From Glaucostegus cemiculus (lineage: Eukaryota): DNA of 64,000 nt. The stretch spans positions 27,404,001 through 27,468,000 of the forward strand of contig CDPCPM010000033.1 in the NCBI GenBank assembly GCA_976551045.1, given 5' to 3'. Positions 18,301 to 63,300 of the stretch are shown in pieces. Position 1 is the stretch's first letter. Each line of letters begins with the position of its first letter. The position numbers and the translations under genes are program-made. A model generated the notes under the pieces. It searched no databases, was not told the DNA's origin, and saw nothing but the letters and a program-made list of their open reading frames with translations.

Positions 18301-21300
18301 GGAATGTCCAGGTTTGGTGTCAATATTTATTCTGTTGTCAGGCTTCAGAAGGTGTTCCGCCTTTGTCCAAGTAACTCTAGGATCAGGTTTGCCAGAGACA
18401 ACAGCTGGGAGCTCAATCTTTGTGCCAGCCTTCACGGTAATGCCGGCAAGCAACTTAACATCAAGATGAATCTCTGGAGCCTCTGTTGTAAACAAAGAAA
18501 ACATGAATAATTTGTTAAGAATTTTAAGAAAGAAAATTGTAGGTTAAATTCAGTATTGCCATCGCTAATTGTGGAGATTCACTTGAAAAAAATCATCAAC
18601 TGGATAATTCCGTGTAGGATTCATTGTCTTAATGAGCATCCAATCATTAATATGAATTAATTGGGAATTAGAAGCATCAATAAAGCTCTGTGCTAATTAC
18701 ACAGCCCACAAGTTTGTTGCATAGATCATCAATTTATCAGTAATAGTCAGACATAACATCATTAATTATAGTGAAACTTGAGCAATATGGTTAACTATTA
18801 TTTCTTTTGTAATAATTCTTTGAGGATAAATGAAATTGTAATTGTGACTTCATTTATTGCAATGTGAACATTTGTGAGATAAATCTATCTATATTTAGTA
18901 AATAATTAGGATGTATTATTAGGGAATGCCTTTATTAAAATGATGATTTGGAGAAGTACTTTTATATTAGTTAGTAACAATGTACCTTTTGGATCGACAG
19001 CTTGTATATCGTCTGTAGGTTTACTAGGTCTGCTGGCACCTTGTCTATTCAAAGCTTTAACCCGGTATGAGTACCATTCATTTTCTGTGAGGTTTGTCAC
19101 TTCCATCCTATTTAACATAATTATCGTATTAGTGTTATTTTGTACTAACCAAAACAAAGCAAACATTAGAAAATTAGACATATAGCATTACTTCAATTCG
19201 TGAACTGGTTCTCCACATGGATCCCACTTTTCAGTACCACGTTTACACTTCTCTACTAAATAGCCTTTAATTCTTGAACCTCCATCATATTTTGGTGGTT
19301 CCCAGGCAAGGAAGATTCCACTGGCAGTTGAATCCCTCCATCTGACACTTTCTGGTGGATCTGGAACAGCTGAAAAATAGATGGAAGTAAATTAAAAACT
19401 TCTGTTCAAAAGTTTCACAAGGACAATTATATAATGAAAATTAATTTTCATCATCAGATCTACATCAGTTTAAAACTGGGTACTATTGCAGCTGATATGT
19501 TCAAAAGCAGAATATATGCAATTTTCCAAATAACTTGCTGAAATTTGCAGAGATAAGAATGCTTGGGGAGCAAGTCACAGCATAGGAAATAAATAAACAG
19601 GACTACTTCTGTTGTGTCAGAATTCTGGTGGGCGGTGACATCAACTTGCTCCACCACTCTCATACCCCAAACCAATTTCCCAATTCAGAGTATAGTAGAG
19701 AAACCATGGCAGAATTTCCGTTGATATTAAAGGAGCAAAAATATTTCAAAGGTTAGAATTCTGGAATCTTGGTAGACCTTGGCAGGTAACAATACGGGAA
19801 TTTGCTGTGCAAATATATTGAATATTCAAAATTTGAAGAATATACTAATGAAACAGCAAGCATACATTACAGGAGTGATTTAAGAAACATTTTCAGCTTA
19901 GATTTTTCATTATCCTTTGATCTTATCTACAAAATGCTTGCTAAATCAGTCTTGAAAAGACTTTAGAATCTTATTTTGTTTCCTTGGATGCTCTTGACAT
20001 GCAAATTGTAGAACATTATGAAATATATTTAAAAGGTGGACCTATGCAATGATACATTTAACAAAAGTCAGAGTAGATCTATTTGACTGTGCTTAAAAAC
20101 TAACATTTTACAATTTAATATATATGATTGAAAAGCTAAATACTTACTTGCTGGAGCAGATACATTAACAGGTTCATCAATATATGCAGGTTCACTTGGG
20201 CCACATTTGTTACAGGCAGAAACTCTAAACAGGTAGTCTCGGCCTTGGAAGAGGTCAGTGATAGTAAATTCCAAGTCCTGCACTCTCTCAATAACCTGGA
20301 AATGACAGAACGCCACAATGATAAAACTGGAATCACTCACAAATAGAGTGTGGCTTCTCCTTTAAAACACAGACAAATCCCAGTACAGCAGAGGCCACTG
20401 GTGAATAATTGTCACAAAATCTCCATGCTAAATATCCACTGAGAAGCAAGAAAAGATTTTGGTTTGCTGCCTGATCCTATCAAACCTTTTAATTTGAGGG
20501 GGGAGCTCCATACTAGCTTTTCAGGCAACTTTCACTCACATAGAAAAGAAAGTGAGCTCGAAAAAATCCTTCCCATCTCTATGCTGATCTAGTCCCACAT
20601 ATGGCATTAGATGTGCCTGAAGAACCCCTGAAATACCAAGACAAGTTTAACAGACCTAACAGAGTTGTTGTATTTTTTTCTCAGTAGTGCTGTGAGTGTT
20701 CCCCAACTGTTTTGAAGAGGATTTGATATAAAAAAAAGCAGCATATGTTTTTATAAATAAAACTGAAGATTCTGCATAAGAAAATCTGACAAAATATTTA
20801 TGCCTACCATTCAGAATGGTAATGACATAAGATTGACTTCAGTATTTAGTTGCATCTAGCCAACTTAATAACAATATCTGATGAAAAGTTATGGACCTGA
20901 AATGTTAACTTTCTCTATCCACAGATGCTGCCTGACACATTAAATATCTCCAGCATTTTCTCTTTTGTTTCGATTTCTGGCATCTGAATTTTGTTGCTTT
21001 ACAAATGATGGAGCTAGATTGACATCAGAATATTTCTATTTCTATTTGTTTCCTTCAGTATTATAGTCTGCATGGATAATTTACAAAAAAAATCACTTGC
21101 TTAGGAACACAGTAATTTCTTTTGTTGCTAGTCTAAATGGGTAACTTCAATGATCACTGGTGACAACCTTGAGTCACCAGTTTGAAAATAACAGAAATAA
21201 ATTTAAGATCAATATGATTTATCACTTACTTTGACCCAAGTTTTGCGGTTAACTTCACGCTTTTCAATGAGATATCCAGTCAATGGACTTCCACCGTCAT

Positions 21301-27300: not shown

Positions 27301-30300
27301 TTCACAAACCAGTTTGATTGTCTCCGTTTCAGTAACTTCAGCATTTGCGAGGTTCTTTGTAAAGGTAGCTTCCTCTTCTGCAAAATATGGCAAGTGGAAA
27401 TGCATCAGTAAAATGTAAAGCTGGTTTCTAAAAGTTAAGAAAATGCACTCGATTTAATTGATTACCTAAAACTGTAAGCAATCCAGAAGTTTTAGCAGTC
27501 TTTGCATCGCATTCATATTCCGCTTCATCGTCAAAGCTGCTTTTGTGGACAATTAGCATCCTCTCCACACCTTTAGCAACAATGTCATACTTCTTGCCTT
27601 TTCTTACTTCAACACCATCCTTAAACCAACACACCTGAAATTTTAAGAAATCCATAGTGAGGTGTTCAGAATAATTTCATAAATAATTTCAGAATACAGC
27701 ACAACATGTTTATAAAATCCAAGGCACTATTCTCAAAATGCACAAAAATAGATTCCTTTTTAGAGTTGTAGTAAATCTATTATTGAGGAATTTTACTATA
27801 ATAATTTGGTGCCTAGCACCCTGGTAACACCCAAAAGACATATATTCAAAAAGATTAAAAATGCCTATGTCCTTAGCATTTCTTTAAAAAAGAAATTATC
27901 ATGTTAATAATTGGATGAGTACACATAACATCTACAGAGACAAATTTGACCAGGGGCTCAGAACTTAACAATATCACAGACAGAAATGTATGCAGTAGGT
28001 AGTGTTACTGTTACAAAACATATTCAACTATAATTATCAAAAGAATATGAATTTAAGCCACAAAATAGTGTTAGAATGGAAGTTTCAGAATCGAAGAGGT
28101 TGGCCAAGTCTGTGTTTCAAGCTTCAAGTTTTTAAACTATTAACAAGATAAGAGATCTTTACATAATGCCTCAGCACCAGGACAAAAAAATAGTACTCTT
28201 ATTCACAAGACATGGTAAGCATACAAACATATATGTTTCTTTTCTTGCCTTAAAGTAATGAAAGTGCATGACACAGTGAAAGCATAATAAACTCAGGATT
28301 ACCCAAATGAACGAGAATTGATCAGAAGAATTTGTTTGGATATTTTTGAGAAAGTCAGTACAGGCAGTCCCTGGGTTAGGTAAGGATTCCATTCCTGAGA
28401 ACTGTCTATATGCTGACTTTTCTGTAAGTCAGGAACATCCATTTTCTATAGCTACCCATTTCATTAAATAATCATCCTAACACTTCCAATATTTAAACCG
28501 ATGGAATATATACTGTAGTTAGTTATTAATGAATACCATTAAACATTTTATTATTAATACTACCAGTTTGAAAGAGAATTTGTTTAAAGTAGTATTCTAA
28601 GTCAGGTCATTTGCAACCCAGGGAGCCCCAATATAAAAGAAAATAAGGTTTTTGTGGGGCAGGAATTTACAAAAGGAGTTGGAGAGCAAAGTCATCAACT
28701 CTACGAGCCAACCGGTAGGGAAGCAAAAAACAGTTAGGTAATCCAAGGAATATCTATCACATGTGTCAGGCATACTGAAGTGTAGAGAAGGCAAAGTTTC
28801 TGAGATTACTAAAACAATATTAAAAGGAAGCTGTGAGATATCCAAGTAATGGTCAAAATTACTAAAGTAAAGTGAAGGAGCCAGTAAAGAACAGTTGGTG
28901 GAACTAAGGAACAATGACAGCTTCTGCTTAGTACTATTCAGTTTAAGACAAATCAAAGGACTAATAAGCCCAGCTAGCTGTCTATCTGATCTGGTGCAGT
29001 TAATGGTATTGCTGTTTCAGATCATATTCTCATTTTACATTTCATGTGTTATAGATGATTTAGGAATAAAGCATTCAGTGGAACTTTCTCACAATATTGT
29101 TTCCTGTCGAGTCTCTGGAAAGTGCCAGTAAACAAAATTGAATCACTTTTTTTTCCTTTAGCATTACCTGGTGATTGTGGAGTCATAGATTATTAGTTTC
29201 CTCAGCATCAGAGGCAACCCAATTTGCCAGGTTTGTTCTTAAGGATTCAGTCATTTCATTCAGTAATTACATCAGTGAACCACTCTACTATCATCACACT
29301 GATACATTAATTTGAGTACATTTCTGTAATTAACTCTGCCAATTGGTGTTATAACATCAATGATTCATTAGTCAATGGGTTGTAATCAGTAGATTTCCTT
29401 GCTTTATCTAACTTCCATTACTGACCAAACTCTTGTAGGACTCAGAAGTAATACAATTTCTTGAAAAACACTATAATGCTGGAGGAACTCAGCAGGCCAG
29501 GTAGCATCTGTGGAGAAAAGCAGGCGGTCAGTGTTTTGGGTCAGGACTCTTCTTCAAGACCCTTCTCCTGAAGAAGGGCCCTGACTCGAAGTGTTGACTG
29601 CCTGCTTTTCTCCACAGATGCTGCCTGGCCTGCTGAGTTCCTCCAGCATCATAGTGTTTTTCATCTAGATTCCAGCATCTGCAGTCCTTTATTTCTCTAA
29701 TACAATTTCTTGTTGAAGAATTTTCTCATACCAGAATTACATTACACTTTGAGCAGTCTAACCAACAAGTTGACCTCAAAAAATGTGAATTTTTTAATTC
29801 AAAGCTACAATGGTCTCATCCATTTATTCTAAGTATTTATTACATAAATAGAAGACCAAGCTAATCCCCACAAACCTAAAGGAAAGAAACTTAATACTTC
29901 TCCCCAATTTGGCCTACTACATTCTCAGATAATGCTGAGTAAATACTGAAGTTGATATTGAATCTTAGTAGATACGAAGTTGCCCAGAAAACTCTCCATT
30001 TGCAAAACAATCATTGCAAAACAAAATACAAGAAAATTAGGACAAAACTATCATTGTAACTGATTCATCAGGTCAGAGTTAGACTCAGGCAAACTGACCA
30101 ATGAACAGTAAAAAAAAATCCTCCTCTCTATCATCCGGACACTAGTGCAAATAAAATGGTACTATGGAAACGGAACAAATCTCAGACTTAGGAAAGGTCA
30201 GATCACTCTCTTGGAAAGTGTACAGGATAATTTATTCTCCATGAAAGCTTATTACCTTAAACTGTGGTAGGAATAAAAGTAACAACATACGAGTCTTATA

Positions 30301-33300: not shown

Positions 33301-36300
33301 CGTTAACAGACTATTTAAACACTTGCATTTCACTGTTTCAGAAATTAATCTCTTGACCATCCTTTATTTTGCCAATGCCACATTAGTGACATATTTTATT
33401 GTTTCACTGATAGTCAAATTTCAGATCAGTTCAAATGTAGTTCGTTAGGGCATGTAAACCTGAGCAGAATTCGTAGATTGAACTGCTATATATTAAATCA
33501 TTTATATAAAAATGGCAAACTAAATTAAGTGCATTTAGGGCATTCAATTTTACAATGATGGGTCTGTTGATGTTTCTGCAAATTATGGATACCTTCATTC
33601 AGATAAATGCAAATAGAGTTAAATCATGATGTAAATTTTTCTTATCCATTGTATAACATACCTCCTTTCATTGTTTTCAGTGAATGTAAAATCATCTTAA
33701 AAAACTAGGGATCGGGGGTAAAATAAATGTTCCATTTTGAAAAGAAGAACTGCAAATTCATTTTAACCCCAGAAAAAAAAATGTGCATATCTATGTACTG
33801 TTTCAAAGATAAGCATCTATTCTATTTGATGGAAGGACCTTGTTTTACAAAAGAAAGTAGTAACTGTTTCTTCTTGAAAAAGTGAAAACATCTTGACATT
33901 AAGAAAATACATTTTTGCAAAATTACTTAAGCATATTAATGTATAAGCTTCTGTTGATAACAGAAGAAATAAGTACTTTTCATTGAAGTTTTTTGATTAT
34001 TCCTTTTCACGTCAAGCAATTTTTAGAAGTATTTTAGAAGACATTGAGGCCTTATGTGCGAGACAAGAATGAGAGAACATTATTGAAACATACAAAATTC
34101 TCTTCGGGCTTGACAGGGTAGATGAAAGGATGATGTTTTTCTTGGCTGGGATATTTGGAAGCAATATTCACAACCTCAAAATAAGGTGTCAGTCATTCAG
34201 GACAAAAATGTGAAGAAATCTCTTCACCTCGATGGTAATTAATCTTTGGATTTCTCAAACCAAGAGGGCTGTGGAGGCTTAGTCACTGAGTATATGATAT
34301 TACTGAACATAGGAAGCCTGAGGGAATGAATGAACTTCTACTGCTTCCATCTTCTAATTCTTTATGTTCTTAGTTCATATTTTTACTGATTTTTAATCCG
34401 GTAGAATACAATGAGTCAAAAGGTCAGCATTATATTTTAAAAACTGCACATCAGCACTTAAGTGATTAAAAATAGCCACAAAAGAATCTGGCTTATTACA
34501 TTGAACCCCAGTCAATTGTCTGATGTAGAATTACCATCCACCATAGTCCCTCAGTTCAGTGGATTTGTGGAGCCAGATCTCTTGAAAATGTAGACAAAAT
34601 ACCTCTCTAATACTTTTAAGATTCCCATGATTATAGAAAAATAAAGTAACAGCACAAAATACATATCAACATACTCTTTCACTGGGCTCAAGTAACTTGT
34701 TCTTCAAGAACCATTGGACTTCAATTCCTTCATAGGACAGTTCACAATCGAAAGAAGCCGAATGTCCAGCAGTTACTGTCACATCCTTAAGGGGCCGGAG
34801 TAAGCTGATCACTCGAGCTTTAGATGAAGCAGACATTATATATCTCTTAGTTTCAGAAGAACTGTTCCTTTAATTTAAAGTTCTCAGGAGAACTCTCTGC
34901 ACTTAAATTTAAAAGCTATAATGCACATTCTATTTCTTCAAAAGCAATATGCCCAGCAGTAAATCTGAGACATTTGAGGCATCATTTTAACTGCTGATCA
35001 TAGTTATTCTCATTCCTACTTGAGGCATTACACCTAAAATTCAGTGGCTTTGACAGCTGCCTGCTTCTGTCCATCAGCTTTACTGGCATTTTCAAAAATT
35101 GCAGGTATGGTATAGAGTTGACATCAATATGCATCCTTCTACTCCCAAAGGTAAAAAAACAAACAAAACATTGATGAAGGGTCTTGACTCAAAAACTGAC
35201 TGTCCATTTTCCTCCATAGATGCTGCCTTACCCACTGAGTTCCTCCAATGCCTTGTGTGTTACTACAAACAAAGCATTGGTTGGTTTTAGGTGGGAAGCT
35301 TACAGCTGTTCAGTAAATTCTTGCCACTTTGTATATTCATTAGACAAAGCCAAATAAAATGTTGGGAAATCTTAATGGCTTATCAAGTGCAGTTTTTCTT
35401 GACTAGTCACAGTATTGGTAACGTAACATTAATTGCATATCTACCTTTGACCCTCAAATGAGCATTGGTTTTGGCGTTAGCAGCCTGGAAATCAACTTCA
35501 CCAGCTTGATCCATTTGCACATTGTACAATATAAGAAAATGTTTTGTGCCTTCCTTTTTGATCTCACAGTCCTGAATTGTAATTAAACAAAAATAAAAGT
35601 TTTAAGTATGGAATAGAGAAAATAGGTAAAATTTAACTGATTTGCTGATGTTAAAACTCACTGCAGAGGGACGCAAGTTCTCTCCTTTCAGCTTCCAATT
35701 GCCATGTACATCATCTTCAGAAATTTCTGTCTCAAAACGAGCAGTTTCTGTTTCTGTGACTTCAACACTGTACAGTGGACGCAATATCTTAATGTGACGT
35801 TCTGAAACAAAATAATAAAAAATGCTATTCTTCAAGAAACATGCCTTAATTTTTTTAAAATACACTTACTTAATTTACTAAAAATGCAAGTTCTGAGTCA
35901 TCTCAGTAAACAACTCTAAACGACATAAAATAAACAGGCTTTACAGCTAATAAGATGGCATGCATTTATTTTTACCTTCAGTGTTTAGTTTGGCTGATGT
36001 GTTGTCAGAGCCACAGTCACAAGAATATTGCCCCTGGTCGCTCTTCATAGCTCGTTTAATGATCAATATTCGCTTCTTCCCATCTGCTTTAATCTGAATA
36101 TTCTTTGAAAGAATCAGTTCTTTTCCATCCTTGAACCATTTAACTGGAGCAGCAGATTTACTGACTTCACACTGGAAGACAACTTCATCTTTTTCTACAG
36201 CTGTGTAATCTTGTAGTTTACTGATAAAATATGGTTCACCCTCTAAGAAAATCAAAAGGTGAGTCAAGTTAGAAATACTTAAGATTAAATGCAGCAATTC

Positions 36301-39300
36301 AGTTCAAAGCTTGATTAGCAAATTAATTTATGTGTTTACATATATTTACCAAGTACTGTAAGTTTAGCCTCCGAACTTTTGTCCATTGCTTCAATTTTGA
36401 TGAGGGAAGTATCATCGATGGTCACATCCTTGAATGTAATGGTATGGATCTTATTCTCATCTTTCATAGTCACTGATCGACTTGGATGCAGACGGATATC
36501 ATTTTTGTACCATACAACTGGAATGTTGTCGTGTGAAAGCTCAGTTACAAATTCTGCAGTTTCACGTTCTTTTACAGTCTGGTCTTCAAGAGGTTTCGTG
36601 AATTCAAGTCGTATGCCTGTGAAAAATGAATTTATGAACTTCATGCTGCATTAATAAGAAAACAGTCTTAACTGCTGATGAACTTATCCACTGCAATTTT
36701 TACTTGCCTTGGATTACTAGTTTGCCACTTGTCCTCTTATCCTCTGCTTCAAAAATGTATTTTGCTTCATCATCAAATGCAGCTTCTTTAACTGCCAACA
36801 TATGTTTTGTCCCTTCTGCCAACATTTCAAATTTATTACTAGGTTTAATTTCATCACTTCCTTTTAACCAGCGGAAAGTCTTGGCCTCTCTGGATACTTC
36901 ACATTCAAACTTTGCTTCATCTTTCTCATACACTTTCACATCATTAAGTGGTACAATGAAAGTGAGTGGAATTTCTGGAGGGGAATGCAGGAAATAAGAA
37001 ATTTAGATTGTTTATGTTAATTATAAAAATCGTTCATGTCTCTGTTACGAATGTACAAGCCTAAACCGTAATTACAAAAACCGCAGAATAAAAAATATTT
37101 GCAGCTCTTTCAAGAGAATTCAAATTACCTTTGACTTTCAGAGTTGCTGCAGATTTAGCATTTGCAGCCTGGAAAGACACTTCTCCAGAATCACTTAGCT
37201 TGCAATTGTAAAGGGTCAGAATGTGTTTTTTGCCATCCTCAATAATCTCACAGTGCTGTAAATTATAAGATAATCAAAGATAAATTTGGATGACATTTAT
37301 TTATATTAAAAACTGTACAATCTTCTTTACCCAAATATATTTAGTTTTCTTTGTTCTACGGACCATTCATTAAGATCATGATTTTGTCATGAAAGTGGTT
37401 AATTAACTAACATAATTCTGAGGTAAAATTATTTACTCCAGAATAATTCCAAAACCAAGAAAGCAAAATTTAATTTCAAACTAAATTAAGAAAACAACGT
37501 ACAGGTGACATGAGCAAAGTTTCGCCTTTCAGCTTCCACTGGAGATGAACATCAGTTTCTGAAATCTCCACTTCAAAACGGGCAGTTTCACCTTCAAAGA
37601 TTTCTATGCCATGTAATGGGCGCACCACCTTGATGATGCGAGCTGTAATCACATTAGTATTAAAAATTGAAGTTTAAATTGCATATTTAGAAACTATAAC
37701 TGATGAAATATGCATACATACTTATTCATAAAGAATATACCTTCAATATTGACAGAGGCTTTGGTCTTGTCAGTTCCACAGTCACATTCATATACACCCT
37801 TGTCTTTATCATCAGCTCTTTTGATTGTCAAAATACAGCGTTTCCCAATAACTTTCATTGAAACTTTTTTTGATGCTTTGATTTCATTGCCATCTTTTAG
37901 CCATTTAACTGGTACTTCTTTGCTGAGTTCACATTCAAGACTGATGTCGTCTCTCTCTACAGCAGTATAATCTTGTAGTTTCACAGTGAAATAAGGATCA
38001 GCCTCTGTGGATGAAAGAAAAACAGCTAATGTTCTGCTTGAAGAAAGGTTGCTTCTCCGACAGAACATACATTTTCAAAACTTCTCATTAAACATCAATA
38101 ATAACGTGGTTCTCTTTTTTAATACTTTATCAGTACCATTATGATATGAACTGCACACAACACGTGGTGCCATAATTCAAAACAATTGCATTACTCAATC
38201 CTCACCTAGGACATTCAGATTACATTTTGTGGAGAGCTGGGCAACTTCTGCCCGTATCTGACATGTATCATCAAGAGTTGCTTCTTTAATTTCTAATGTG
38301 TGCTTCTTCCCATCGCTGGAGACCAAAACAGTTCTGCTTGGAAGAATTTTGTTTTCATTTTTGTACCAAGTCACTGGGAGATTTTCATGTGAGAGCTCAA
38401 TTTCGAAATGAGCTGTGTTACCTTCTTTGACTGTCTGATCTTTAAGTGGCGTAATGAACTTCAATCGCATACCTTGAAATATAAAGTCATACATGAGCTG
38501 TTAATACTACAGCAATTTAAGATCATGTAATTAATTATTCATTTCAAATCTAAATATTAAAAGGTGAAATAAATTGCTATTATTTGCCAATCAAATAAAA
38601 TGCGATGCTTAAAATATGAAATAGAAACAAAAAATGTTGAAAACACTCATCAAGTAAGCCAGGGAAACCGAGCTAATAGTTTAGGTCAAATACCCTGCAT
38701 CAGAATTGGGAAGAAGAAAATATAAATTAGTTTTGTGTCGTAGAAAGTGCGTGGCAGGATCAAGATAGGATGCAGTTCGAGTTGTTCTGAGAGACCAGAG
38801 CTCTGTGAAATAGATCAGGTGTTATCTGAAGTTGCAGAATTCAATTTTGAGTCCGGAAGGCTCCAACATGCCTACATGGAAGAAGAGGTAATGTTCCTCA
38901 TTCATCTATCAACTGTATAACTTCACCAACAGCCTATCCCCACAGTAACTGTGGTGTCACCCTAATACAGATATTCCTTTCAACCTATCCATCCATCTGC
39001 CACTGACTCTGCAACTTAAAACTAACTTGTTTTCCTTTCTTTTCCACTTCTGATGCAGGGTTTTTGATCTTAAACATTAATTCAGTTTCTCTTTCCACAG
39101 ATGTTGCTGGACCTGCTAAATGTTTCCACCTTTTTTTGCTACCATTACTTGACAGCCTTGGCTCATTGCCCTTTCCACTGAGCACCACTCCAGTGATTTC
39201 ACACATAATTTAAGCAGACACTTGAGTGCAAAATTGAGGTACTACAGCTTTTCAGGAAAGATACTTAAACTGAGGTTCTATATGCCTCCTTAAATTAATT

Positions 39301-48300: not shown

Positions 48301-51300
48301 ATACCTTTGGATTTTTCTTCTTCAGAAGATGGTTCACTTCTTGGTTTGTGAATAATTTTGGGAAGGTCAATTTTTGTGAGATAAGGATGTTCTGTTTTCT
48401 CCCCAACAGGCTGAGGAAGTGTACTACTTTTTCTCAATATCACATGCTTTTCTTCTTCTTCCTGTTCTACAGGTAATTTATCAGACTTTGTCAATGGTAA
48501 GATGTTCTCCTCCGCCACACCAGGAACTTTAGCCTGCTTTATTGATTTTATTTCCCTATCACCTATCTTCATAGGAACTGCTTTTGATTTGGTTACAGAC
48601 ACAGGCTTCCCCTTACTTTTGTCAGCTTTAGGAACATCATCAACCTTTTCCAGTGTTATTTGCTTCTCTATAACTTTTTCATCAATGTGTATTTCAGTAA
48701 GTTTCTTTGACGCACTGTGTTTTTCTTTTAAAGCTTCTTTTTTAGGAATTATCTCAAACTTTTTGAATTGCACTTTATCTGCTTCTTCCTCTTGTTTGGG
48801 GATGTAATCGAGTTTCTTTAGTGCAACTGGCTCTTTATCCACTTCCTTGTGTGGTACCCTACTATCTATTTTTGGTAATATTTTGCATGTTTCATCCTTT
48901 TCAAGGGAGATTTTCTCAGTATCTACTTTAGGAATCTCATCAACCAACTGTAAAACTATATCTCTTTTTGTTTCTATCTCTTTTAACATTATACCTGGTT
49001 TCTTTGGCAATGTATAATATTCATCAGTTTCAATTTCTTTAGGGCTTTCAGTAGATTTCCTGAGTTTTAACCCTATTTCTTTGTCATCTTCTTTATGGTA
49101 TCTCGTTTCTTCATCTTTCACTTTCTCAGGAACCTTACTACGTTTCTTCAATATTGAAATTTCTCTATCTTCTATTTCTTTTGGGATTTGGACTGTAGGT
49201 TTTAGTTTCAAAGATGACTTGGATTGTTCTGCAGCTATAAAGGTTTCATATTCAATTTAGTGACAAATCAACAAAGACTTTTGCAATTCCCCTAAAAGAA
49301 CAGTCTAACATCAAAACAAAACAAGTTATAGTCTCCAAACCACATTGGTGTTCACCAAATAAAAGCACACAGTGAAACTTTTCCATAGTCAACATAATTT
49401 CAAAATAAACACATTAACAGAAAGAATCACAAGACAAGTTACATAACTTGTAACTATTTAAGTAGACTGAAGAGACAAATTGATACAACTAGAACACAAC
49501 ACTTAGGATCCAGTGGAGATCTATAAATTTAAATTTAGCACACAAATCTGAACAGAGAATGTACATTAATATATTATAGAGTTAAATATTTTAAAATTTA
49601 AGCACAATAGGATTTGAGAAATTGTACCTTTAACAGGTTTCTTGACAGGCCCTGGTGTAGTGATGGGAAGTGTAGTAATAGGCACTTCTTCAGCTTCTGG
49701 CTCTTTGGAAATAACACCAAAAGTTGTATTACCATTAAAATTGAATCTTAAAATACAATACTATATGGAGATGTGTTAACAATAATATTTAAAACATTTT
49801 TACACTTAATCCAATTGGCTCAGTTACTAGAGTTTTGACAGAATTATTTTGCACTTCCCCTCCATCATTCCATGATTAGGAAATTAAACATATTGTATGG
49901 TAGGTCAATTAAAAAAGAAAATATCCTTGATCAATTGGAGTACTTATTTATTTTCTGCCCTGGAGAAAGAATAACTTTCATTGAGGCCAGACAGCACAAA
50001 TAAAAAAAAAATTGGAAAAGTAAATCAAATCAAAGTCAATAGCTTATTAAACATCTCCAATAACTAACAACCCTAAATTTTCAAAGTAGTAATCAAATAG
50101 ATTAGGGATTGAATTTCAATTTCAAAGCTATTATATAACATTTCCATTTATTATAAAATTTAATTACTAATTAGACTGATGGTAAAATGAAAATGAGGTA
50201 CAGTTGAGTTAATGAATAAAATAAAATGAAAAGCAAGCATCGTTAACTCAGCAATGAAATGACAAAATGTGATGAAATGTAGGAAGCTGCATGGATTTTG
50301 CACCAGTGACACAAGATGATGAGTGACACTCATTTGTGTACCTTCCTCCGATTCCAAATCTTGTTTCACTGGAGCAGTGACTAGATCACCTTTAGGTTCA
50401 ATCTTCTCAGCAACTGTAGTAACTTCAAAAAATATTTTTGTTCAAATGTTTAGTTTTTGCACAAATGATCTAAATCACTGGCAATATTAACTAGAAGTAA
50501 CTGGACATGTCTAATACTCAGTTATTAACAATGTTATAAAAGTATTTTTGTTGCTTTTGGAACATTGTTAATAAAGGTCATTTGAATGGCCTTTTCTTAA
50601 TTTTCCTTTAAAGATTTAATAAGCAACATTTGAGTGTTAATTATTTATATATTTTAAATATCCATACACAGGTAAAGATAATGGTTAAAGTAATGGCAAA
50701 GATATAACATCAAAAATTGGGCACATGAAAAATCATCCAAAAGATTACATCAATGTTCAATCTGATCTTAGTTGGGCAAGAAATAAGAAGCTTTCTGTAC
50801 AGTCTTAATTCCTATACAATCTTATCTAATCTCCTACCTTGGCCTATGTAAGCCAATGTTTAAATTATACTCTGGTTGCTGGTAGTATAAACTTCTATTT
50901 AGATAGGATGGGCTTTGTGAAATATTCCAAAAATATTCCAAAAATTTGTAAACTTTTGTACTCCATAACAAATGTCAATAACATGATGCAAACCAAGACA
51001 AGAAAGAAGAGAACTAGTGTCACTAGAAAACACCTGAAATTTTTTGTTAACATTGGACATAAAAATATTATAACAAGCAGGGTCTTGTAAAGAACCTTCA
51101 TTTTCATTGATTGTGAGATGTAGCAGTTACTTTTAGACAGGATCTTCTAATAAATTAATTCTATACCTTTTTGTGTAGTAAGTTGCATCTTTATTGGAGG
51201 TGTAACTTCAACAAGTTTGTCATGTGCAATCTTCTTATCAGCATCAATAATTCTGCTGGGTAATATTTTCTTGTCAACTTCAACAACTTCTTCATGTAAA

Positions 51301-54300: not shown

Positions 54301-57300
54301 ACCCGATTTCATTCTCAATCCATACTTCCCATAATCAGAAAATAGGTTACACCAAATAACAGGGACACAGAGCAAACAATTAGCACAACATATATAAAGC
54401 TGCTTTTTCAACCACCATTAAATCTTATGGTAAATAATATTATAATGGCATTTAAAAAGATTATATAGAGCCTTTTAAAGAAAATTTTATTCAGCATTAA
54501 TTACAGTGATAAATCAAAAAGTTAAATTATTAGTAAACAACAGAAAAATAACTATAAATAACTTTTAAAATGAGATGGTTTAGCATACTGCAATAATATT
54601 TGATAATGCATAATGTTTAAAGAATGCAATGTAGTATTATTGTTTGCCATTGTGAACCTATATAACTAAATATCACCACATTTCTGAAAAATGCCAGAAT
54701 ATTCCATAGGAATAGGAGAAGGCCATTTAGTTCCTTAAGTCTGTTCTGCCCAATCAATAATTTTGTGCTGTCTGATTTCAGATCTAACTTCATATTTTTG
54801 TTGTCCATAAACTCTGATGACAAAATCATAATTGGCTTTGCATCAATTACTATTTGCAGACTTTCATCATGCTCTATGTGTAGAAATGTTCCTGTGTTGA
54901 ATATTTTTGTCCTTCATGTTTCTTTTCATACAATCTTTTGTAGCTCTTACTATCATTTTCATCTTTTATTGTTGTTGTATTTTTCCCTGTCATTGGCATC
55001 TCTGCCCAATTTTGTAATTTTTATGCTTTTTCTTTTATATTTATATTATTCTATGTCCTTCAGAAATCAATTCCTGGCATTTCATTGGCCCTTGTCACTT
55101 TGTGATATTAACTGGATCAGTATCACATTAAATTATTATATGAATATTAATTACTCAGCTTCTGTTATTTTAGCCATTATCGCCTAAAACTACGTATTCA
55201 GCAATATGGTCCTGTTCTGCAACTTACATCTAATCATTTTGCTGGCTATGATATCCTTTCAAATTTGATGGAAACTTATACAACTCATCACTTCATTACA
55301 CTAATCGAACACTGATTGGATTTTATTTCAGGCTTGAGCAGAAAACATTTCCGCCTGTTGTTAGCAGCCTGTAAAATAAAATGTCTCTCAAAGGCAAATA
55401 GAATTCTTTCTTTTGGAGGATCAGACTTCCTCCACTCCACCCAAGTGCCTCTAAATTAAAAACAGACCTGCCATTTTGTTATTGTTTCACTTTTATGAAC
55501 GTTAATATAATGGGGTTGTCAGGCAATTGCAGGGATGCATTTTTCAACTTTTAGTTTTTAGAATACATTTAAAATTTACATTGTTGAGGAGAATAGCTCT
55601 GCCTATGTTTAAGCACAAAACTGTCTCTTGGTGAGATTCATAGCCAATCAGTATAAACTAGATTGAAAAGCAAATATCTCTATATGCTGGAAATCAGAAA
55701 TAAAAACAAAAACACAAGTAATACTCAGCAAGTCAGGAGCATTTATTGAGAGAGAAACAAAGTTAATGTTTCAGGTGAATGATCTTTCATCAGAACAAGG
55801 AAAAACCATAAATTGAACCAGCTTTAAATTGCAGAAAATAAGGTCACTTTAATTTTTCATTCCACTCTGACCTCTCTAACTGCCTACGCTGTTCCAATGA
55901 AGCCTAATGTATGTTCAATGAACAGCATCTGATCCTCCCAAATAGATATATTAAAGCTATCAAGACTCAACAATAAATTCAACCATTTCAAATATATGGC
56001 TTGTAAATATATGGTTGAAAGATCGTTAACCTGTATTGCTAACTCAAGCTTCCTCTCTCCACGGATGCTGTCAGATCAGCTGGATATTTCCAGTATTTTC
56101 ATTTATTTCACAGCAGTGTTCTGTATTTCACAGTTCCAGCAGTGCTCTTTTTCCCCCTAGTCTCCTCTATCCTTTTTCATCTCCTTCTATTTACACCAGG
56201 GAGATCATTTGCAATTAACAAACTTTCTTCACATTGTTTCAGCCAGCAGCACTACATATTCTCTCCTGGTCTCCACCCTTTCATAAACATGCCCTTTGTT
56301 CTCTCCACCTTCTCTCTTTCTCTGAAACTTAAACCATGTTCAATTTCCATCTTTTCCTAATTCAGATGACGAGACAACATAAACCATTACCTCAGTTTCT
56401 TTCTCTACAGTTGCTGTCTGACCTTCTGAGTATTTCCACCATTTTCTGTATTGATCTGAGATTTGCAGATATAAGATCTTTCAATCTTAGATAAATATTT
56501 TATGCCTAGTATGTTGTCATCATAATATATGCTTTTTTCAATGTGAAAAGAGATTTTGATACTCAGATGTTGAGTTACTCTTAGTCCTGATGAAAGGTCA
56601 TTGACCTGAAGAAAATATCTCTTGCTTTTCACAGATGCTGTCTGACCTGGTGTGTGTTTTCAGCAATTTCTGTTTTCCACCTGACATTTGCATATCTGCA
56701 ATATCTTATTTATGTATATTTCATGATAATCATTTTCTTAATGATTATAGATTAATTAGTTAATAGATTAATATGATTAGCTTGATTATAGATCAATTCC
56801 ATTCTTGATAAGTATTTGTTTCTCAGGCCTTTATTTTCAAATACATTTCTTGTGTCCTCTGAGATGAAATTAAGGTAATCAAAAAATATATTCTCAAAGC
56901 AGCTATTATATAGTTTGTGACAAGGGATAAAGGCTTTAAGTATTTTAAGACAACATAAATAATAACAATTGTACATTACTGACATGTAAACAAAAGAATT
57001 CAAACCAGCCAAGCACTGGTGGAGTTCAGAGGGGAAAAAAAAGTGTTTACATTAGCACATTTATGTGCTGTTTCTGTACCTTTTCTATCCTTTTCTGGAA
57101 TGGGTCGGACTGTTTTTGAAACAGTGATAGGTGCAGGTTCAGCCTTCTTGACAACTTCAGGTATTTCAAATATTATTTTTCAGACAAATTATTACATTGA
57201 GTGTTCAGTAAGACAAACATAAGTAGTCAAACAAAGCACAGACAACGGAATAAACAAACAGACAGAAAAAGAAATTGTTTAGCATGACCTGAAAAGTTAA

Positions 57301-60300
57301 CTTCTAGATTTGAGGAAACATTATATTTATCTATATTCAGAGATGTTTTTAAAATTTGAAAAAAGATTGCTTTATAATTTAATAAAATTCAGAAAATCCA
57401 ACAAGCAAATCTGAAGGGTTGAATAATTAGATATTTTCCCTTCATTTCTGGAACCTTATTTCAAATGGAAAACGGACTCAATGAATGGAAAATTGATATT
57501 CCTCTCAGATCGAACATCAAACAAGGTTGGAACAGTTTTAATCCACTTCTTCGTAATCATTGTACCTGAGTGCAAGGCTCCCATTTATTACCTCTAAGTT
57601 GTTAATCTCATCCAGAATTTAAAATATATTTATAGTGATATTAATTTTGAAACTTTAAGGTTATTGGTAAGTAAACATTTAGCAATGCTGGAAGCTGATT
57701 ATAAATGCAACAAATAGTGTATAATTGGTGCTGAATAACCCAACACTAGTCTTGTGTGGTTGCCGTGGCTCAGTTTTGCCCCACTTTGTCAGTATGTTGT
57801 TTTACCTTCTTCAGGTGCAGGTTTCTCAACTTTTCTTGGAACAGACACCGGCTTAGCTTCTTCAGCAACTGGCTTCTTAGGAATCTCAGGAACTTCAAAA
57901 AACATATTTTATATTTAAATTTATCTTACCAAAAAGATATGCAATATTTAACAAAATAAAAATTCACACTGGATACTGCATAACACACCACTGAGATTGA
58001 TTTTTATATCCACTCAAATAAGAAACTGAATTTAATTGTAAAAATGAGCACATCACATGTTTTTCACTAGAATTATATTCCTCATTCCTCCCAAATTAAC
58101 CTGTTGCAAAGTTGTCTGGTGGGTCACAGCAATAATCTGATCATGCTATTAACACTATAGTCATTATGTCCAATTTTAATATATTCAAAAGTCATGCAGT
58201 AATTTTTTAATCTATCACTACATCCCTTAATAAGGTTTTATTTCATCAGATGATTGATAAAGAGATAAATAAAACATTTATTTTGTGAATTAACATCTCT
58301 TTACAAATGAAAATGCAGCCATTCTGTTTTACAGGACTGTTGCAGGTTCATCTAGTAAATGATGAAACTGGAATTTACATTTTTTGCACAGAATTTTAAT
58401 AATGGGAATACTATTAAATAATAGTACAGTTATTTATTTCATTTATTTGTTATCAACTTCACATCATAGAAATGAATCACAACCAGACATTCTGCACAGT
58501 TTTGCAAATTACCTTTGACTCACCACAATGTGATCATTTGATCATTATGACAATTATTCTATAAAATCATTTTGTTATGAAGTGATAAATGTGTACTTTT
58601 GTATGTTGTTATTTTGAGCTTAAATTGATTCACTACACTTTATGAAGGAAGACAATGTTTTACCGGGCTAAAATAACTTACAAAGTTATGAGTTGAGGTC
58701 ATAATTTTTTTTTTATTAACAAAAATTGGGGTTATTTGTCAAAATCAGTTGTTTAGTGCTCAAAACCTGGCATGGTACCTAAAGTTAAAGTTATTTTTGG
58801 AAAAAAAAGAATAAATGGCCTCTTTCATTTGATGTAATAAACTCCTCACATATAAGCACTGAACAAGAATCAGCTTCAGAAAACATTTGGTTGAATTATC
58901 AATCCTCAAAATAGTACTATTTGTGTTTTATACTGATATTGAATTACATGTCCTGTCAACTATTGCAAAGAAAGTATTGAAGACTTGGTCATTGGCAACT
59001 AATTCTAAGTAAATTTCATTTGTTCTCCATTGTTAGCAAAACTTATAATCAGCCAACAGAAAAATCCAAACATTTATTTCCCTACGGAATCTCCAGCCCG
59101 TCTAAAGACATGTTAGATCCTCAACCGTGCAACGATTTCACAGCAAAAATAATCCATGAGTATATCAAACATAAAAAGGAATTGATTAAAATTCAAAATT
59201 AAACTATCGCAAGGTAATTATTTCACACAAATATTTCAAGCATTTAAAACTACAGAAAGATACAGACCTTTTTCTGGAGTGACCTCTTTCTTTGGTTTCA
59301 ATGGTTCAGGAGCTGGCTTCTTAGGAACTTCTGGTACTTCAAGAAATATAATTTTAAGATTAAATATAATTATTATAACCAATAGTAGCAATATAACAAA
59401 TTAAAATGGCACAAACATATGTGACGGAGAAATTCAGCACCTAACATTTACTCTTCTGCAGTAAACATAGTGGATGAAAACTTGGCTAACCACAGGTAAG
59501 CAAAACATGGTACATGAGTACTTTGCAAATAACAGGTTACACACTTCTAAAAACAGAAGAAGATGGGAATACTTAGTGGGTCAGGCAGCATCTGTGAATA
59601 GAGAAAGAGTGGACCTTTCAGGTTAATGAACTTTCATCAAAACTAATGAAATGAAATTTCACCAATTCTGATGCAAGTTCATCAACCTGAAATATCAACA
59701 CTTTTTCTCTCTACAAATGCTGCCAGACCTACTGAAGTTTTGCAGTATTTTCTGGTTTAATTTCAGATTTCAAGTATCAGCAGTTTTTTTTTCTTTTCAA
59801 TTACTGCTATTATTTTGTTTAATGGCTGCAACTTTTGGTTTGGTAAGGGCCCTAACAGCAGTATGGCAAGAACACTTTAGAGGCAACTTGTGAATGGAGA
59901 AGTGCATTAGGGTTGCAAGAAGTAGTAAAAGATCATTTTCAAAAGAATATCAAGGTTGTGATAAGTTGAGCAATCATGGAATGTGTGCACTAAGGTTTTC
60001 AGGCAATATAAAACACGGAAAGGACGAGATTTTGAGGTATGTCATGGGTAAAGAACCCTCATCAACCATAGATATCCTTTTCCTTGTTTTGGTCAAGTAT
60101 AAGGTTGGCACAAAAAGAAGGCAAAAAGGACTGCTGCAAAAAGAAGGAATTTTGACTACTGCCAGAATAACAGGCATTCACCTATCCATACTAGCTCAAC
60201 AATGAGAAAATGAAATGATTTCAGTTCAAGTAAAATGTGAAGGTTCGCAGGAAATGCGTATTAAGCCATGTTTAAGCAGTCAACAGCCCCTTCAACATAC

Positions 60301-63300
60301 TGAGCCTTTAATATGTGCTTATCTTTCCATCCATCTTGCCGGCATGTATGAAGCATGAGAGCAAGCTGCATTTATCTGCACAGAGGAGCCCAGGGAATTG
60401 TGAGATGTTTCTTGAATCTCCCACGGTAGACTGGAAAAAGCCATGTTCATAACAGTGTAGCGTCAAGGTCACTTTGACAACAAAAGTAAGGCTGCCCTTG
60501 CTTTATTTTGTGGGTGGATTTTGACTCAAAACCTGGCTTGGTACCTGGAGTTAAAGTTTCATTTTTAGTAGAGGAAATTAGAAGAAATAGCCTTTTTTCA
60601 TGTCAAGTTATAAAGTCTTAATACAAGCACTCGGTTGCTTAAAGAACAAAAAAAATCATCTTTTCAAACTTCTTTTTAAATTCTGAATCCTCCAAACAAT
60701 ATTATTTCTGCTTTATGCTAACATCAAACCAGGTTTTATGTCTACTATTGGAGTAAAACTCATAAGGTCATAAATATAGGTACCTTGTCATTGCAAACAA
60801 TGTTTAAACTAAGTGATTTTCATATGTTTTCAACTGCCAGCATATCTCAAAATCCTGACAGTTATTTCCCCACCAAATCTCTGGCCCATATAAAGATTTG
60901 TTAGACCTTTGATTATGTAATAGAGTTTATAACAACAATAATAACACAAAAATATATCACAATAGATAAAGGCATGGAATAGAACTAAGAATTAAAAAGT
61001 AGGCAAGTACTTATTTCACACTTCTTTTCATTTAAATCAACAAAAAGATATTCTACCTTTTTCTGGAGTGACCTCTTTCTTTGGTTTCAATGGTTCAGGA
61101 GCTGGCTTCTTAGGAACTTCAGGCACTTCAAGAAATATTATAATTTAATGATTAAAGACAACTGTCATAATCAAAAGTACCAAGATAACAAGTTAAAATA
61201 GCACAAATATATCTGACAGAGAAATGCGATACTTAATAATTTCTCCTCTCCTGTAAATGTGCTGGAGGAGAAATTGATTTACCAGTGGGAACAGGTTTGC
61301 AGAAACTGTTACATTATTAATCTGTGTTCATTTGTTACTTTGCAGGCAACAGATTAAATTGATCTTAACCCTGAAAAAATGAGAAATACCTAGCAGGTCA
61401 GGCAGCATCTGTGAAGAGAGAAAGAGTTAAGCTTCCAGGTCGATGATCTTTCATCAAGGCCAATGAACTGAATTTTCACCAGTTCTAATGCTAGTTCATC
61501 AAGCTGAAATATTAACATTGTTTCTCTTCCTGCCAATGTGGCCACACCTGCAGACAACTTGCATCACTTTCTGATTTAATTTTAGTTTTCAAGCATCTGC
61601 AATTTCTTTCCTTCGATGAATTTTCACTGTTATGTTGTCCATTGGCTGCAGGTTTTTGTGGCAAGAGCGTCGTAGCTAATGTAAGTGGAAGGGAAAGGAG
61701 TGAAGTACCTACAGAGACAGCAGGCCTTCAAAGCATGAGGAGATAATTGAAACAAGTAACAGTGGTAAAAGTGTTGCTACAAGAATATGAAAGCAACATG
61801 TGAAAAAAGAATAATGATCTGGAAAGAGCTTTTTAGGTGAGTTCAACTTCACTGAGGATATTTAGTCATATACTCCACAAGTCATAGTCACTGCTCATTT
61901 CATTTATATACTTAATGACAATGTACATTCACTTCAGTTTAACTCTTTGATTCATTTGCTTCACACTCTCACACAGCACCACTGCAAACTTCAAACACAC
62001 AACTCACTACTTTGAATATGTTGGTACCTATTCAATTATGACAGCTGCAATGCTGAAACATATGCCAATATTCTCACTACAGACATTTAGTATTTGCTGA
62101 GTTCCTCGAGCACTTTTTGCGTACTGACTTTGTTCTTCAAAACATCAGTAGGATGGCTGAAAGGCCACCTCAGGAATATAGGAGTGGTGCCATGCTGCAC
62201 ACACCGGCTGCCTTGTCTCAGAAGAACAGCATTCAACCTTCCACCTCTACCACTCTGCTAGATCCCTTGCATTTACTTATCTACCTGACTGTCCAGAATG
62301 TTGCTGCCCACCAGGAGATGATGCAGTCTGGCTCTGAGCATTCCAGGCCCAGAGCTGCTTGCATCTGTTCTCTCAGAAAATCTGTAATCTCCTCAATTGG
62401 AAGTTGGCTGTCTCTCAATACAGCCAGAGGAGACAAAGGTACATGATCAATAAGGACCTAGACAATGAACAAAGATGTTTTTATTATTTTTATAAAAACA
62501 TATCTTAGAATATGTACATCCAGCTGGGTTTCATTTTTTGTTGGCAGACTGGAGACTATCTATTGGACAGAAATAGAGGAAAGCCAAGGAACATGGACTC
62601 TGACAAATGGGGAGCTGCAACTGACATTACTTATATCACTGTTCCATTATATCTTCATTTTCCTTTTGTGTTACTTCACTTCTTGTTCCACTCCTATCTA
62701 TTCCGTTTCTTCATATTTCTGCTCATTTGATTCCCATCCAGTAGGTAGCAGACAAGGACAGTTCCATCATGATGACTATGTCATTGGAGGATGAAACATA
62801 CCACAATGGATCTTGATACCTACTCAAATGAGTACTGCAAATCTATCTAGAGCAGTTTAGGCAGCCGAAGTTTTGTTTGGTGTTCTGTTTCATGTCCTTT
62901 TTGGGAGCAAGATTCTAATTCAACTCCTTTTTTTACACTGATGCAATGGATGTGAATAGGGGTCTCAAGCTATGTCATGAATAAACAACCCTCATCATCC
63001 ACAGACACCCCTATCCTTATTTTGGTCAAGCATGGGGGTGGTAAAACAAGGGGCAGAAAGGACTGCTGCAAAATGAAGGAATTTTGACAACTACCAGGAA
63101 CACAGGCATTCACCCAATCATGAGGACACACCTGCCTGACAATGAAGGAGTGAATTGATTTCAGTTCATGTAACTGCCCAAGGTTCACATGAAATGTACA
63201 TAAAGTTATGTACAAGCAAGTCAACAGCCCCTTCAACATACTGAGCCTTAAGTCTGTGCACATCCTTTCTGTCCATCCTGCTTGCCAATGTGGAGCAAGA

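Follow-up and report, generated by a model that had tools for sequence, protein, structure and literature searches.

The 64,000-nt stretch of Glaucostegus cemiculus DNA analysed here (the window) carries 14 intronic hammerhead-bearing units in a titin-like gene (Table 1), recovered at E<1e-8 with a profile made from seven of the copies reported in a first-pass annotation of the same sequence; the same profile found no unit in the reversed window, where the top match had E 0.53. All positions given in that annotation held (20878+, 29568+, 35171+, 39050+, 55793-, 56587+, 59640-, 59668+ and 61457-), and the profile added 29557-, 38703-, 56012+ (its 5' part worn), 56363+ and 61495+. These 14 units are not 14 events but about seven insertions: 29557 and 29568 form a single inverted insertion with a 15-bp TSD, and the pairs at 59.6k and 61.5k are one insertion multiplied with a PEVK exon repeat, of which three further copies lie outside the window. 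No unit overlapped the mapped exon-like stretches, the PEVK exons at 46-59 kb being mapped only in part.

As had been claimed from the letters alone, no window copy is free of defects in core or stems. All 11 core letters were kept only in 20878+ and 55793-, and in both one stem II pair is broken and the CG of helix III decayed. The GIY-YIG relics noted beside two clusters also proved real. The Rfam comparison proposed at the same time matched no hammerhead family up to E=1, and the Rfam scan of the window returned only miRNA-like hairpins, on inverted repeats.

Table 1. Hammerhead units, coding relics and duplications in the window (PLE, Penelope-like element; HHR, hammerhead; C3, core cytosine used as reference)
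Feature	Position	Strand	Remarks
5'-truncated PLE 3' end, B-type minimal HHR, C3 at 20878	20877..21004	+	core letters intact; stems II and I damaged
Left 15-bp TSD of inverted insertion	29449..29463	+	right copy 29698-29712
Inverted arm, young A1-type minimal HHR unit, C3 at 29557	29455..29560	-	without tail
A1-type unit, C3 at 29568	29566..29697	+	~34-nt PLE tail
A-type unit	35171..35274	+	core decayed
CUGAUGC-type unit, C3 at 38703	38600..38745	-	GIY-YIG relic 123 nt upstream of unit
GIY-YIG C-terminal coding relic	38823..38900	-	E 9e-12
Head-to-head partner: 3' UTR piece and unit, C3 at 39050	38897..39148	+	
B-type unit, C3 at 55793	55671..55800	-	core letters intact, stems damaged; likely inverted partner of 55842-56459
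GIY-YIG C-terminal coding relic, twin-hammerhead subfamily	55842..55994	+	E 2e-21
HHR1 of twin subfamily and its tail	56012..56120	+	GU at core positions 12-13
Subfamily-specific 3' UTR spacer, HHR1 to HHR2	56120..56357	+	E 1.5e-41, this copy included in profile
HHR2 of twin subfamily, C3 at 56363	56357..56469	+	decayed
Separate B-type unit, C3 at 56587	56579..56709	+	stem II perfect, 3' core broken
Head-to-head inverted pair (59640-, 59668+) within duplicated PEVK exon-intron unit	59543..59803	.	
Duplicate of the 59543..59803 inverted pair (61457-, 61495+)	61370..61611	.	

The family majority is a complete minimal hammerhead

The minimal hammerhead layout read from single copies in the first-pass annotation was recovered in the family majority as a complete type-I motif, in the order stem I (4-5 bp), CUGANGA, stem II, GAAA and an AACGUU palindrome. 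The CUGANGA and GAAA core with an NUH site is present in type-I order in the subfamily majorities; the single window copies are damaged. Among 294 units, pair 2.1-1.1 was UA in 130 and CG in 81, and pair 10.1-11.1 was AU in 116, GC in 65 and GU in 63, with G10.1-C11.1 in the A subfamilies and A-U or G-U in the B subfamilies. Overall, 80% of cells were paired, compared with at most 41% when partners were slid, a covariation that amounts to two subfamily-level changes counted many times, in a structure drawn from the same sequences. At 15.2-16.2 of the palindromic helix III, CG (66 units) was accompanied by the CpG-decay forms CA (97), TG (67) and TA (25).

The minimal hammerheads of published PLEs, in the accessible parts of their descriptions, share with these units the CUGANGAH core, an extra base before stem II, a short stem I, a palindromic 15.2-16.2 without helix III, and an occurrence mostly as dispersed single motifs of truncated PLEs, with opposite-strand pairs. 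In the same parts none of the aligned rows is from a shark or ray, stem II has 7-8 bp, against 4-5 bp here, and the pair that is A10.1-U11.1 in our B subfamilies is G-C, although D. willistoni (Fig. S3) also has A-U. The cores CUGAUGC and GUAA, which here vary at the level of subfamilies, likewise depart from those described there.

B units also hold UUAAC, a pyrimidine tract and CAG, resembling a splice acceptor. A conserved PLE intron acceptor at CAG/AUG is questionable, CGG standing at that place in the young A1 subfamily; no GT..AG joint was found among the joints listed.

Units lie behind Neptune-like coding sequences

The proposed link to PLEs was borne out, the units forming the 3' end of Neptune-like Penelope elements, downstream of GIY-YIG. 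A same-strand unit lay within 700 nt downstream at 36 of 40 GIY-YIG loci, in 35 of these at 234-321 nt. The GIY-YIG domain matched PF01541 at E 5.5e-4, under the curated cutoff, and a first look at the genome gave 59,491 candidates. At one locus (L096), a 476-aa frame combines RT motifs, a CxxxxCxxC linker and, at the C terminus, GIY-YIG, its Pfam RVT_1 match being weak (E 0.018). The linker upstream of GIY-YIG reads CPHHRCNTC and fits the CX2-5CxxC definition for Neptune-type PLEs (PMC8557442); it is from this motif that we call the elements Neptune-like. None of the retrieved copies was an intact full-length element with two pLTRs.

Thirty tail-baited copies, which represent the young A1 subfamily, were used to map the ends. 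Their 5' ends spread continuously from -1429 to +59 relative to C3, nine of the 30 reached the GIY-YIG or RT coding region, and 13 had an inverted partner. At the 3' side, where young copies end in a 30-40-nt PLE tail, two classes ~33 nt apart were seen (seven copies at 0-7 nt and 23 at 26-43 nt). Because the 5' ends are spread in this way and reach the coding region, we read the units as truncated copies of coding elements. The ends and layout of young copies agree with the PLE structure described in PMC8557442 and PMC11167929. With the Neptune-clade EN+ PLEs (PMC8557442) they share RT, the CX2-5CxxC linker, a C-terminal GIY-YIG with CCHH-like residues, an HHR close to the 3' end, truncated 5' ends, inverted copies and a 30-40-nt tail; unlike them, one subfamily here carries a pair of HHR units in the 3' UTR. 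Insertion of cleavage products was rejected for young copies, since the cleavage site was the 5' end in only one of the 30.

Arbitrary stretches totalling 400 kb held 75 units (control, 0), corresponding to ~5x10^5 units genome-wide as an order of magnitude. No regular head-to-tail tandem array was found in the sampled 400 kb and 464 kb.

A subfamily with two hammerheads in cis

In the twin subfamily, two hammerheads lie ~370 nt apart and the first has GUAA for GAAA. Its window copy (55842-56459) matched a subfamily profile built without this copy at E 4e-110. Among 38 baited loci, 24 had a second unit 250-600 nt downstream, figures in which the bait and one duplicate locus are counted. In HHR1, U occupied position 13 at 23 of the 30 DNA-baited loci and A at two, and HHR2 had A there at 20 of 24; an arbitrarily sampled copy (L315) likewise has GUAA. 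Since copies are ~22% diverged, the subfamily is long extinct. By column majority, the split enzyme and substrate strands can pair as helices I-III of 6, 4 and 5 bp. This split fold is not thermodynamically favoured, being predicted at +9.4 kcal/mol above the ensemble with stem I at P ~0. Adaptation of the spacer to the split fold found no support, 25 of 40 spacer shuffles being equal or better; nor did a lasting substrate role of HHR1 in related subfamilies, where the proximal unit survives just as a decayed relic whose A at 16.2 disrupts helix III.

Orientation of titin copies, and RNA reads

Titin copies comprised 18 in sense and 25 in antisense orientation (p = 0.36), with core mismatches of 42/176 and 49/253, respectively (p = 0.28), in a test that is small, has little power and includes non-independent duplicated copies. 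Tail mismatches moved in step (77/361 in sense, 93/490 in antisense). Outside titin, damage looked heavier in the core (34/154 mismatches) than in the tail (39/317), an excess that may come from a CpG at G12, from gaps scored as mismatches and from the CUGAUGC subfamily variant.

In three RNA-read sets of one study, labelled with the same species, titin exon coverage was near nil, and the reads on window repeats derive from other copies, 98-99% of them running on unlike the window. A young copy (L104) had RNA reads on both strands, with a depth rising toward the 3' end as it does in DNA contigs; there were no start or end pile-ups of reads on it, in fragmented libraries that would hide ends. 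A few go-back joints occurred among the RNA-read joints listed, from a library unsuited to circRNA.

Discussion

The units are very probably the 3' ends (pseudo-LTRs) of Neptune-like PLEs, each with a type-I minimal hammerhead. Their insertions were likely 5'-truncated and often inverted, their decay since then was likely neutral, and the window copies in titin introns are probably functionless. From the PLE literature, RT would begin near the 3' tail and stop early or switch strand, with the GIY-YIG nick fixing the target; in a master RNA, cutting by the motif would follow GUH and be slow, would need a dimer formed by way of the AACGUU palindrome and might also require the PLE protein. Duplication of the PEVK exon-intron unit by the host would then have multiplied one inverted pair. 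PLE ends with minimal hammerheads are already documented, and what is seen here is their great abundance; our literature search turned up nothing published on PLE hammerheads of sharks or rays, nor on twin units in a 3' UTR, although Lunse et al. 2017 (PLE-HHR variants) may cover such cases.

The first-pass annotation had favoured a non-autonomous, retrozyme-like derivative, and a retrozyme or SINE-like element that PLEs move in trans would fit the many B-type window copies that begin within ~10 nt of CUGA, as well as the description of retrozymes as PLE pLTR derivatives, reported for one chondrichthyan genome, in the accessible part of a preprint (bioRxiv 10.64898/2026.07.22.740005). It is nevertheless a very unlikely source, given that the young A1 subfamily lacks a fixed 5' end, its continuous 5' ends running into the ORF and starting at the cleavage site only once, that B-type units too sit behind GIY-YIG relics, and that head-to-tail arrays are absent from the sampled DNA. 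Highly improbable, too, is that selection against a cleaved or cryptically spliced titin pre-mRNA purged or damaged sense copies, an idea part of which the same annotation had offered for the defects. Sense copies are slightly fewer and their cores slightly more damaged (24% vs 19%), and the acceptor-like stretch of B units would suit cryptic splicing, but neither difference is significant, the tail shows an equal small shift, single minimal hammerheads gave no in vitro cleavage (PMC4209133), and intact core and stems were likewise found in none of 50 random units. Because sense and antisense copies are alike in number and core damage, the decay of titin copies looks neutral.

For the twin subfamily, the two units could be drawn as one discontinuous, type-III-like hammerhead, in which the HHR2 enzyme strand would reach over a ~340-nt loop to cut the GUU site of HHR1, which follows the stop codon by ~65 nt, so that a single pLTR would need no dimer partner. 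Beyond the recurrent second unit, U13 in HHR1 with A13 in HHR2 and the GUAA of L315, this is favoured by U13 adding a sixth base pair to the 5-bp HHR2-HHR1 helix III at a predicted cost ~2 kcal/mol lower, by a predicted 9-bp hairpin sequestering HHR1's own 5' strand (P ~0.6), and by the 10-100-fold change in cut activity caused by A13 in the accessible part of PMC4075628. We still consider it unlikely, in view of the unfavourable fold, the equally good spacer shuffles, the decayed relic in related subfamilies and the divergence of the copies. Moreover, with 14 differences between the HHR1 and HHR2 majorities over 111 alignment columns (six of them at the ragged 3' end), chance alone is expected to place one in the core. 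It is doubtful, as a model, that an extinct Neptune-like subfamily, having doubled its hammerhead within the 3' UTR, divided the work and used HHR1 (GUAA, with a hairpin-locked 5' strand) as substrate and HHR2, 370 nt downstream, as enzyme without a dimer.

Subfamilies that vary in core or stem letters (A10.1-U11.1, CUGAUGC, GUAA), together with a twin unit in cis, offer a natural experiment on whether PLE hammerheads cut, and why; a one-molecule split hammerhead, if true, would directly test their purpose. Asymmetric cleavage by the twin arrangement, if it occurs, would make this arrangement a transposon equivalent of the discontinuous mammalian hammerheads of CLEC2 3' UTRs (Martick 2008, via PMC2950038), which, in the accessible part of that account, can be drawn alike with a large loop between strands; unlike those, the hammerheads here have short, AU-rich helices and an unfavoured fold, and their carrier is not a host gene but an extinct transposon. 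With non-LTR retrozymes, as covered in the accessible parts of PMC7761336 and the above preprint, our units share a type-I HHR related to PLE pLTRs but differ in being dispersed truncated ends attached to coding sequence; the 370-nt spacing of HHR1 and HHR2 is near the unit size of such retrozymes.

Hammerhead-like units in a titin-like gene

The window (G000:C33:27404001-27468000, in an assembly of 2.85 Gb) carries Ig, FN3 and PEVK exons on its minus strand. Since the best PDB matches of one Ig exon were myosin-binding protein C and titin chains, and titin-like exons span about -70 kb to +250 kb (window coordinates), the host gene is, judged by sequence, titin-like. An E/K/P-rich open frame of 654 codons at 47295-49256(-) probably represents a large exon of titin. 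Exon-intron units of PEVK type, each about 1.2-3 kb long, are tandemly duplicated at 58900-64000 and on to about 78500 (67-78% identity); their exons are nearly identical and the introns around them more diverged, which suggests exon homogenisation or selection.

Using a profile search, we found 14 units of the hammerhead-like repeat in the window at E<1e-8 (best E in the reversed window, 0.53), none overlapping the mapped exon-like stretches; on re-check, the unit coordinates of the first-pass annotation were correct, and the GIY-YIG relics it had placed next to two clusters were both recovered by profile. An Rfam search of the window gave zero hammerhead matches. The 14 units trace to about seven insertions. 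Flanking sequence and the following PEVK exon are common to the pairs at 59.6k and 61.5k and to three further copies, located at 64.4k, 75.3k and 78.4k (pairwise identity 65-82% over 650-720 aligned columns); these pairs were therefore multiplied by host duplication. Two other repeats were observed: an inverted repeat at 42322-42501 (84-bp arms, 92% complementary, 12-nt loop), with weak miRNA-like Rfam matches and unrelated to the unit at the thresholds used, and a 260-nt repeat at 16666-16926 and 43615-43876, in opposite orientation and 81-91% alike.

Insertions carrying hammerhead-like units (window coordinates)
Feature	Strand	Reading	Details
Unit 20878		single insertion	
Inverted pair 29557/29568			15-bp TSD at 29449 and 29698; one arm carries a tail of about 34 nt
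Unit 35171		single insertion	
Head-to-head pair 38703/39050		one insertion	
Unit 55793 opposite long piece 55842-56459		likely one event	
Twin piece 55842-56459	+		GIY-YIG end, HHR1 (first hammerhead) about 39 nt past stop, tail, spacer, HHR2 (second) about 350-370 nt on
Unit 56587		single insertion	
59.6k and 61.5k pairs		one insertion multiplied	

Probable truncated remnants of coding Penelope-like elements

The family had been proposed to be a non-autonomous, retrozyme-like derivative of Penelope-like elements (PLEs). P0001, a GIY-YIG protein piece upstream of a young unit (PF01541, E 5.5e-4, under cutoff), gave 59,491 first-look candidates in the whole assembly, and a same-strand unit lay <=700 nt from the GIY locus in 36/40 cases, 35 of them at 234-321 nt. 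One locus, L096, holds a 476-aa frame with RT motifs (Pfam RVT_1, E 0.018), a CxxxxCxxC linker and GIY-YIG. This linker type marks Neptune/Nematis, not Poseidon (PMC8557442), and suggests that the coding elements are of Neptune/Nematis type.

A 36-nt word from the tail of young A1 copies has 1,245 exact occurrences, and element ends were analysed in the first 30 of these copies. Their 5' ends were continuous from -1429 to +59 relative to the core reference position C3, reaching into the ORF in 9/30 and falling at the cleavage site in 1/30; 13/30 had an inverted partner, and the 3' ends formed two classes about 33 nt apart. An extension of ~33 nt is the PLE tail described in PMC11167929, which also presents the PLE hammerhead as protein-assisted and dispensable for insertion in vitro. 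Because of the GIY-YIG linkage, continuous 5' ends, inverted partners and PLE tail, we consider the units to be truncated ends of coding PLEs, with the ends taken from A1, and not a retrozyme as defined in bioRxiv 10.64898/2026.07.22.740005. For B-type units, the evidence of a coding link is the GIY-YIG relics upstream.

Hammerhead anatomy

We aligned 294 distinct units from baited loci and clustered them on the tail alone. Every cluster agreed with the min-HHR consensus published by Cervera and de la Pena (PMC4209133): the 5' strand of stem I, CUGANGA, a single extra base, stem II, GAAA (replaced by GUAA in one cluster), CG, UH and the 3' strand of stem I. With stem I/III and the ORF link both present, the minimal-hammerhead layout with a PLE link stands as first annotated. 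Across subfamilies, pair 2.1-1.1 was UA in 130 units and CG in 81, and pair 10.1-11.1 was AU in 116, GC in 65 and GU in 63. Among 48 copies (42 chosen by tail similarity, six from the window), 80% of cells were paired, a level reached by 0/500 shuffles, slid partners giving <=41%; structural backing from these paired changes is moderate, since they go back to a pair of inherited events, and the tested sequences had also served to derive the structure.

A CUGAUGC-A core recurs at 38703(-), 39050(+) and 59668(+) and in 9/50 random units, and is apparently a subfamily trait, not a per-copy defect. B-type units, e.g. 61430-61410(-), contain UUAAC, a pyrimidine tract and CAG|AUG, resembling a 3' splice site with its branch point, with a second acceptor-like tract within the tail; young A1 units have no such feature at the first site.

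Decay and strand distribution

In 40 arbitrarily chosen 10-kb pieces of large contigs, 75 units were counted (control, 0), extrapolating to roughly 5x10^5 genome-wide. This density, about 1 per 5 kb, compares with zero units at E<0.01 in about 90 kb of titin (-70 kb to +20 kb) where FN3/Ig exons lie densely packed. In 50 arbitrary units whose match covered the core start, the core was kept in 4/50 and core plus stems in 0/50; a relaxed intactness test was passed by 13/294 units of the bait-enriched set. Selection against cleavage of the titin pre-mRNA, raised previously, finds no echo in titin introns (15-255 kb), where, in a low-power comparison that counts duplicated pairs, neither unit numbers (18 sense, 25 antisense, p 0.36) nor core mismatches (42/176 sense, 49/253 antisense, p 0.28, four core-less units left out) differed; tail mismatches were 77/361 and 93/490. 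Outside titin, damage was apparently heavier in the core (34/154 mismatches) than in the tail (39/317). RNA reads, in which titin exons had almost no coverage, showed the family on both strands, without pile-up of ends. The window units are real and belong to a known kind, and they are very probably inert here.

A twin-hammerhead subfamily

The twin piece is a single continuous match (E 4e-110, with a profile excluding this copy). A second unit was present at 24/38 baited loci (one duplicated, one the bait), and independent twin copies occurred in unbiased DNA in the neighbouring region at -184 kb and at two sampled loci, L300 and L315. HHR1 position 13 was U in 23/30 DNA-baited loci, as in the bait itself, and A in 2/30; in HHR2 it was A in 20/24 rows, which comprised the window copy and 23 loci, with L242 excluded. 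Substitution of A13 reduces activity 10-100-fold (PMC4075628).

One could picture a split ribozyme in which HHR2 would cut the site of HHR1: helices of 6, 4 and 5 bp can be drawn for such a fold, to which the U13 of HHR1 would contribute one pair, worth about 2 kcal/mol, and a predicted 9-bp hairpin would lock the 5' strand of HHR1. However, the split fold has a predicted cost of 9.4 kcal/mol, 25/40 spacer shuffles do equally well or better, and related subfamilies have nothing left but a worn relic, in which helix III is broken. Moreover, HHR1 and HHR2 differ in only 14/111 columns, so that one core change is unremarkable. We regard the split ribozyme as improbable; the twin layout more likely goes back to self-insertion, nested in a master copy's 3' UTR, with later decay.

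Discontinuous hammerheads are known in CLEC2 3' UTRs (PMC2950038), and Terminons carry several HHRs (PMC7761336, PMC6431247). In other B subfamilies, the GIY-YIG stop is directly followed by a proximal unit in worn form (GUGAUAUURRCUC, then the tail; loci L179-L193 and L296, +217.9 kb and +216.9 kb), which suggests stepwise HHR1 loss.
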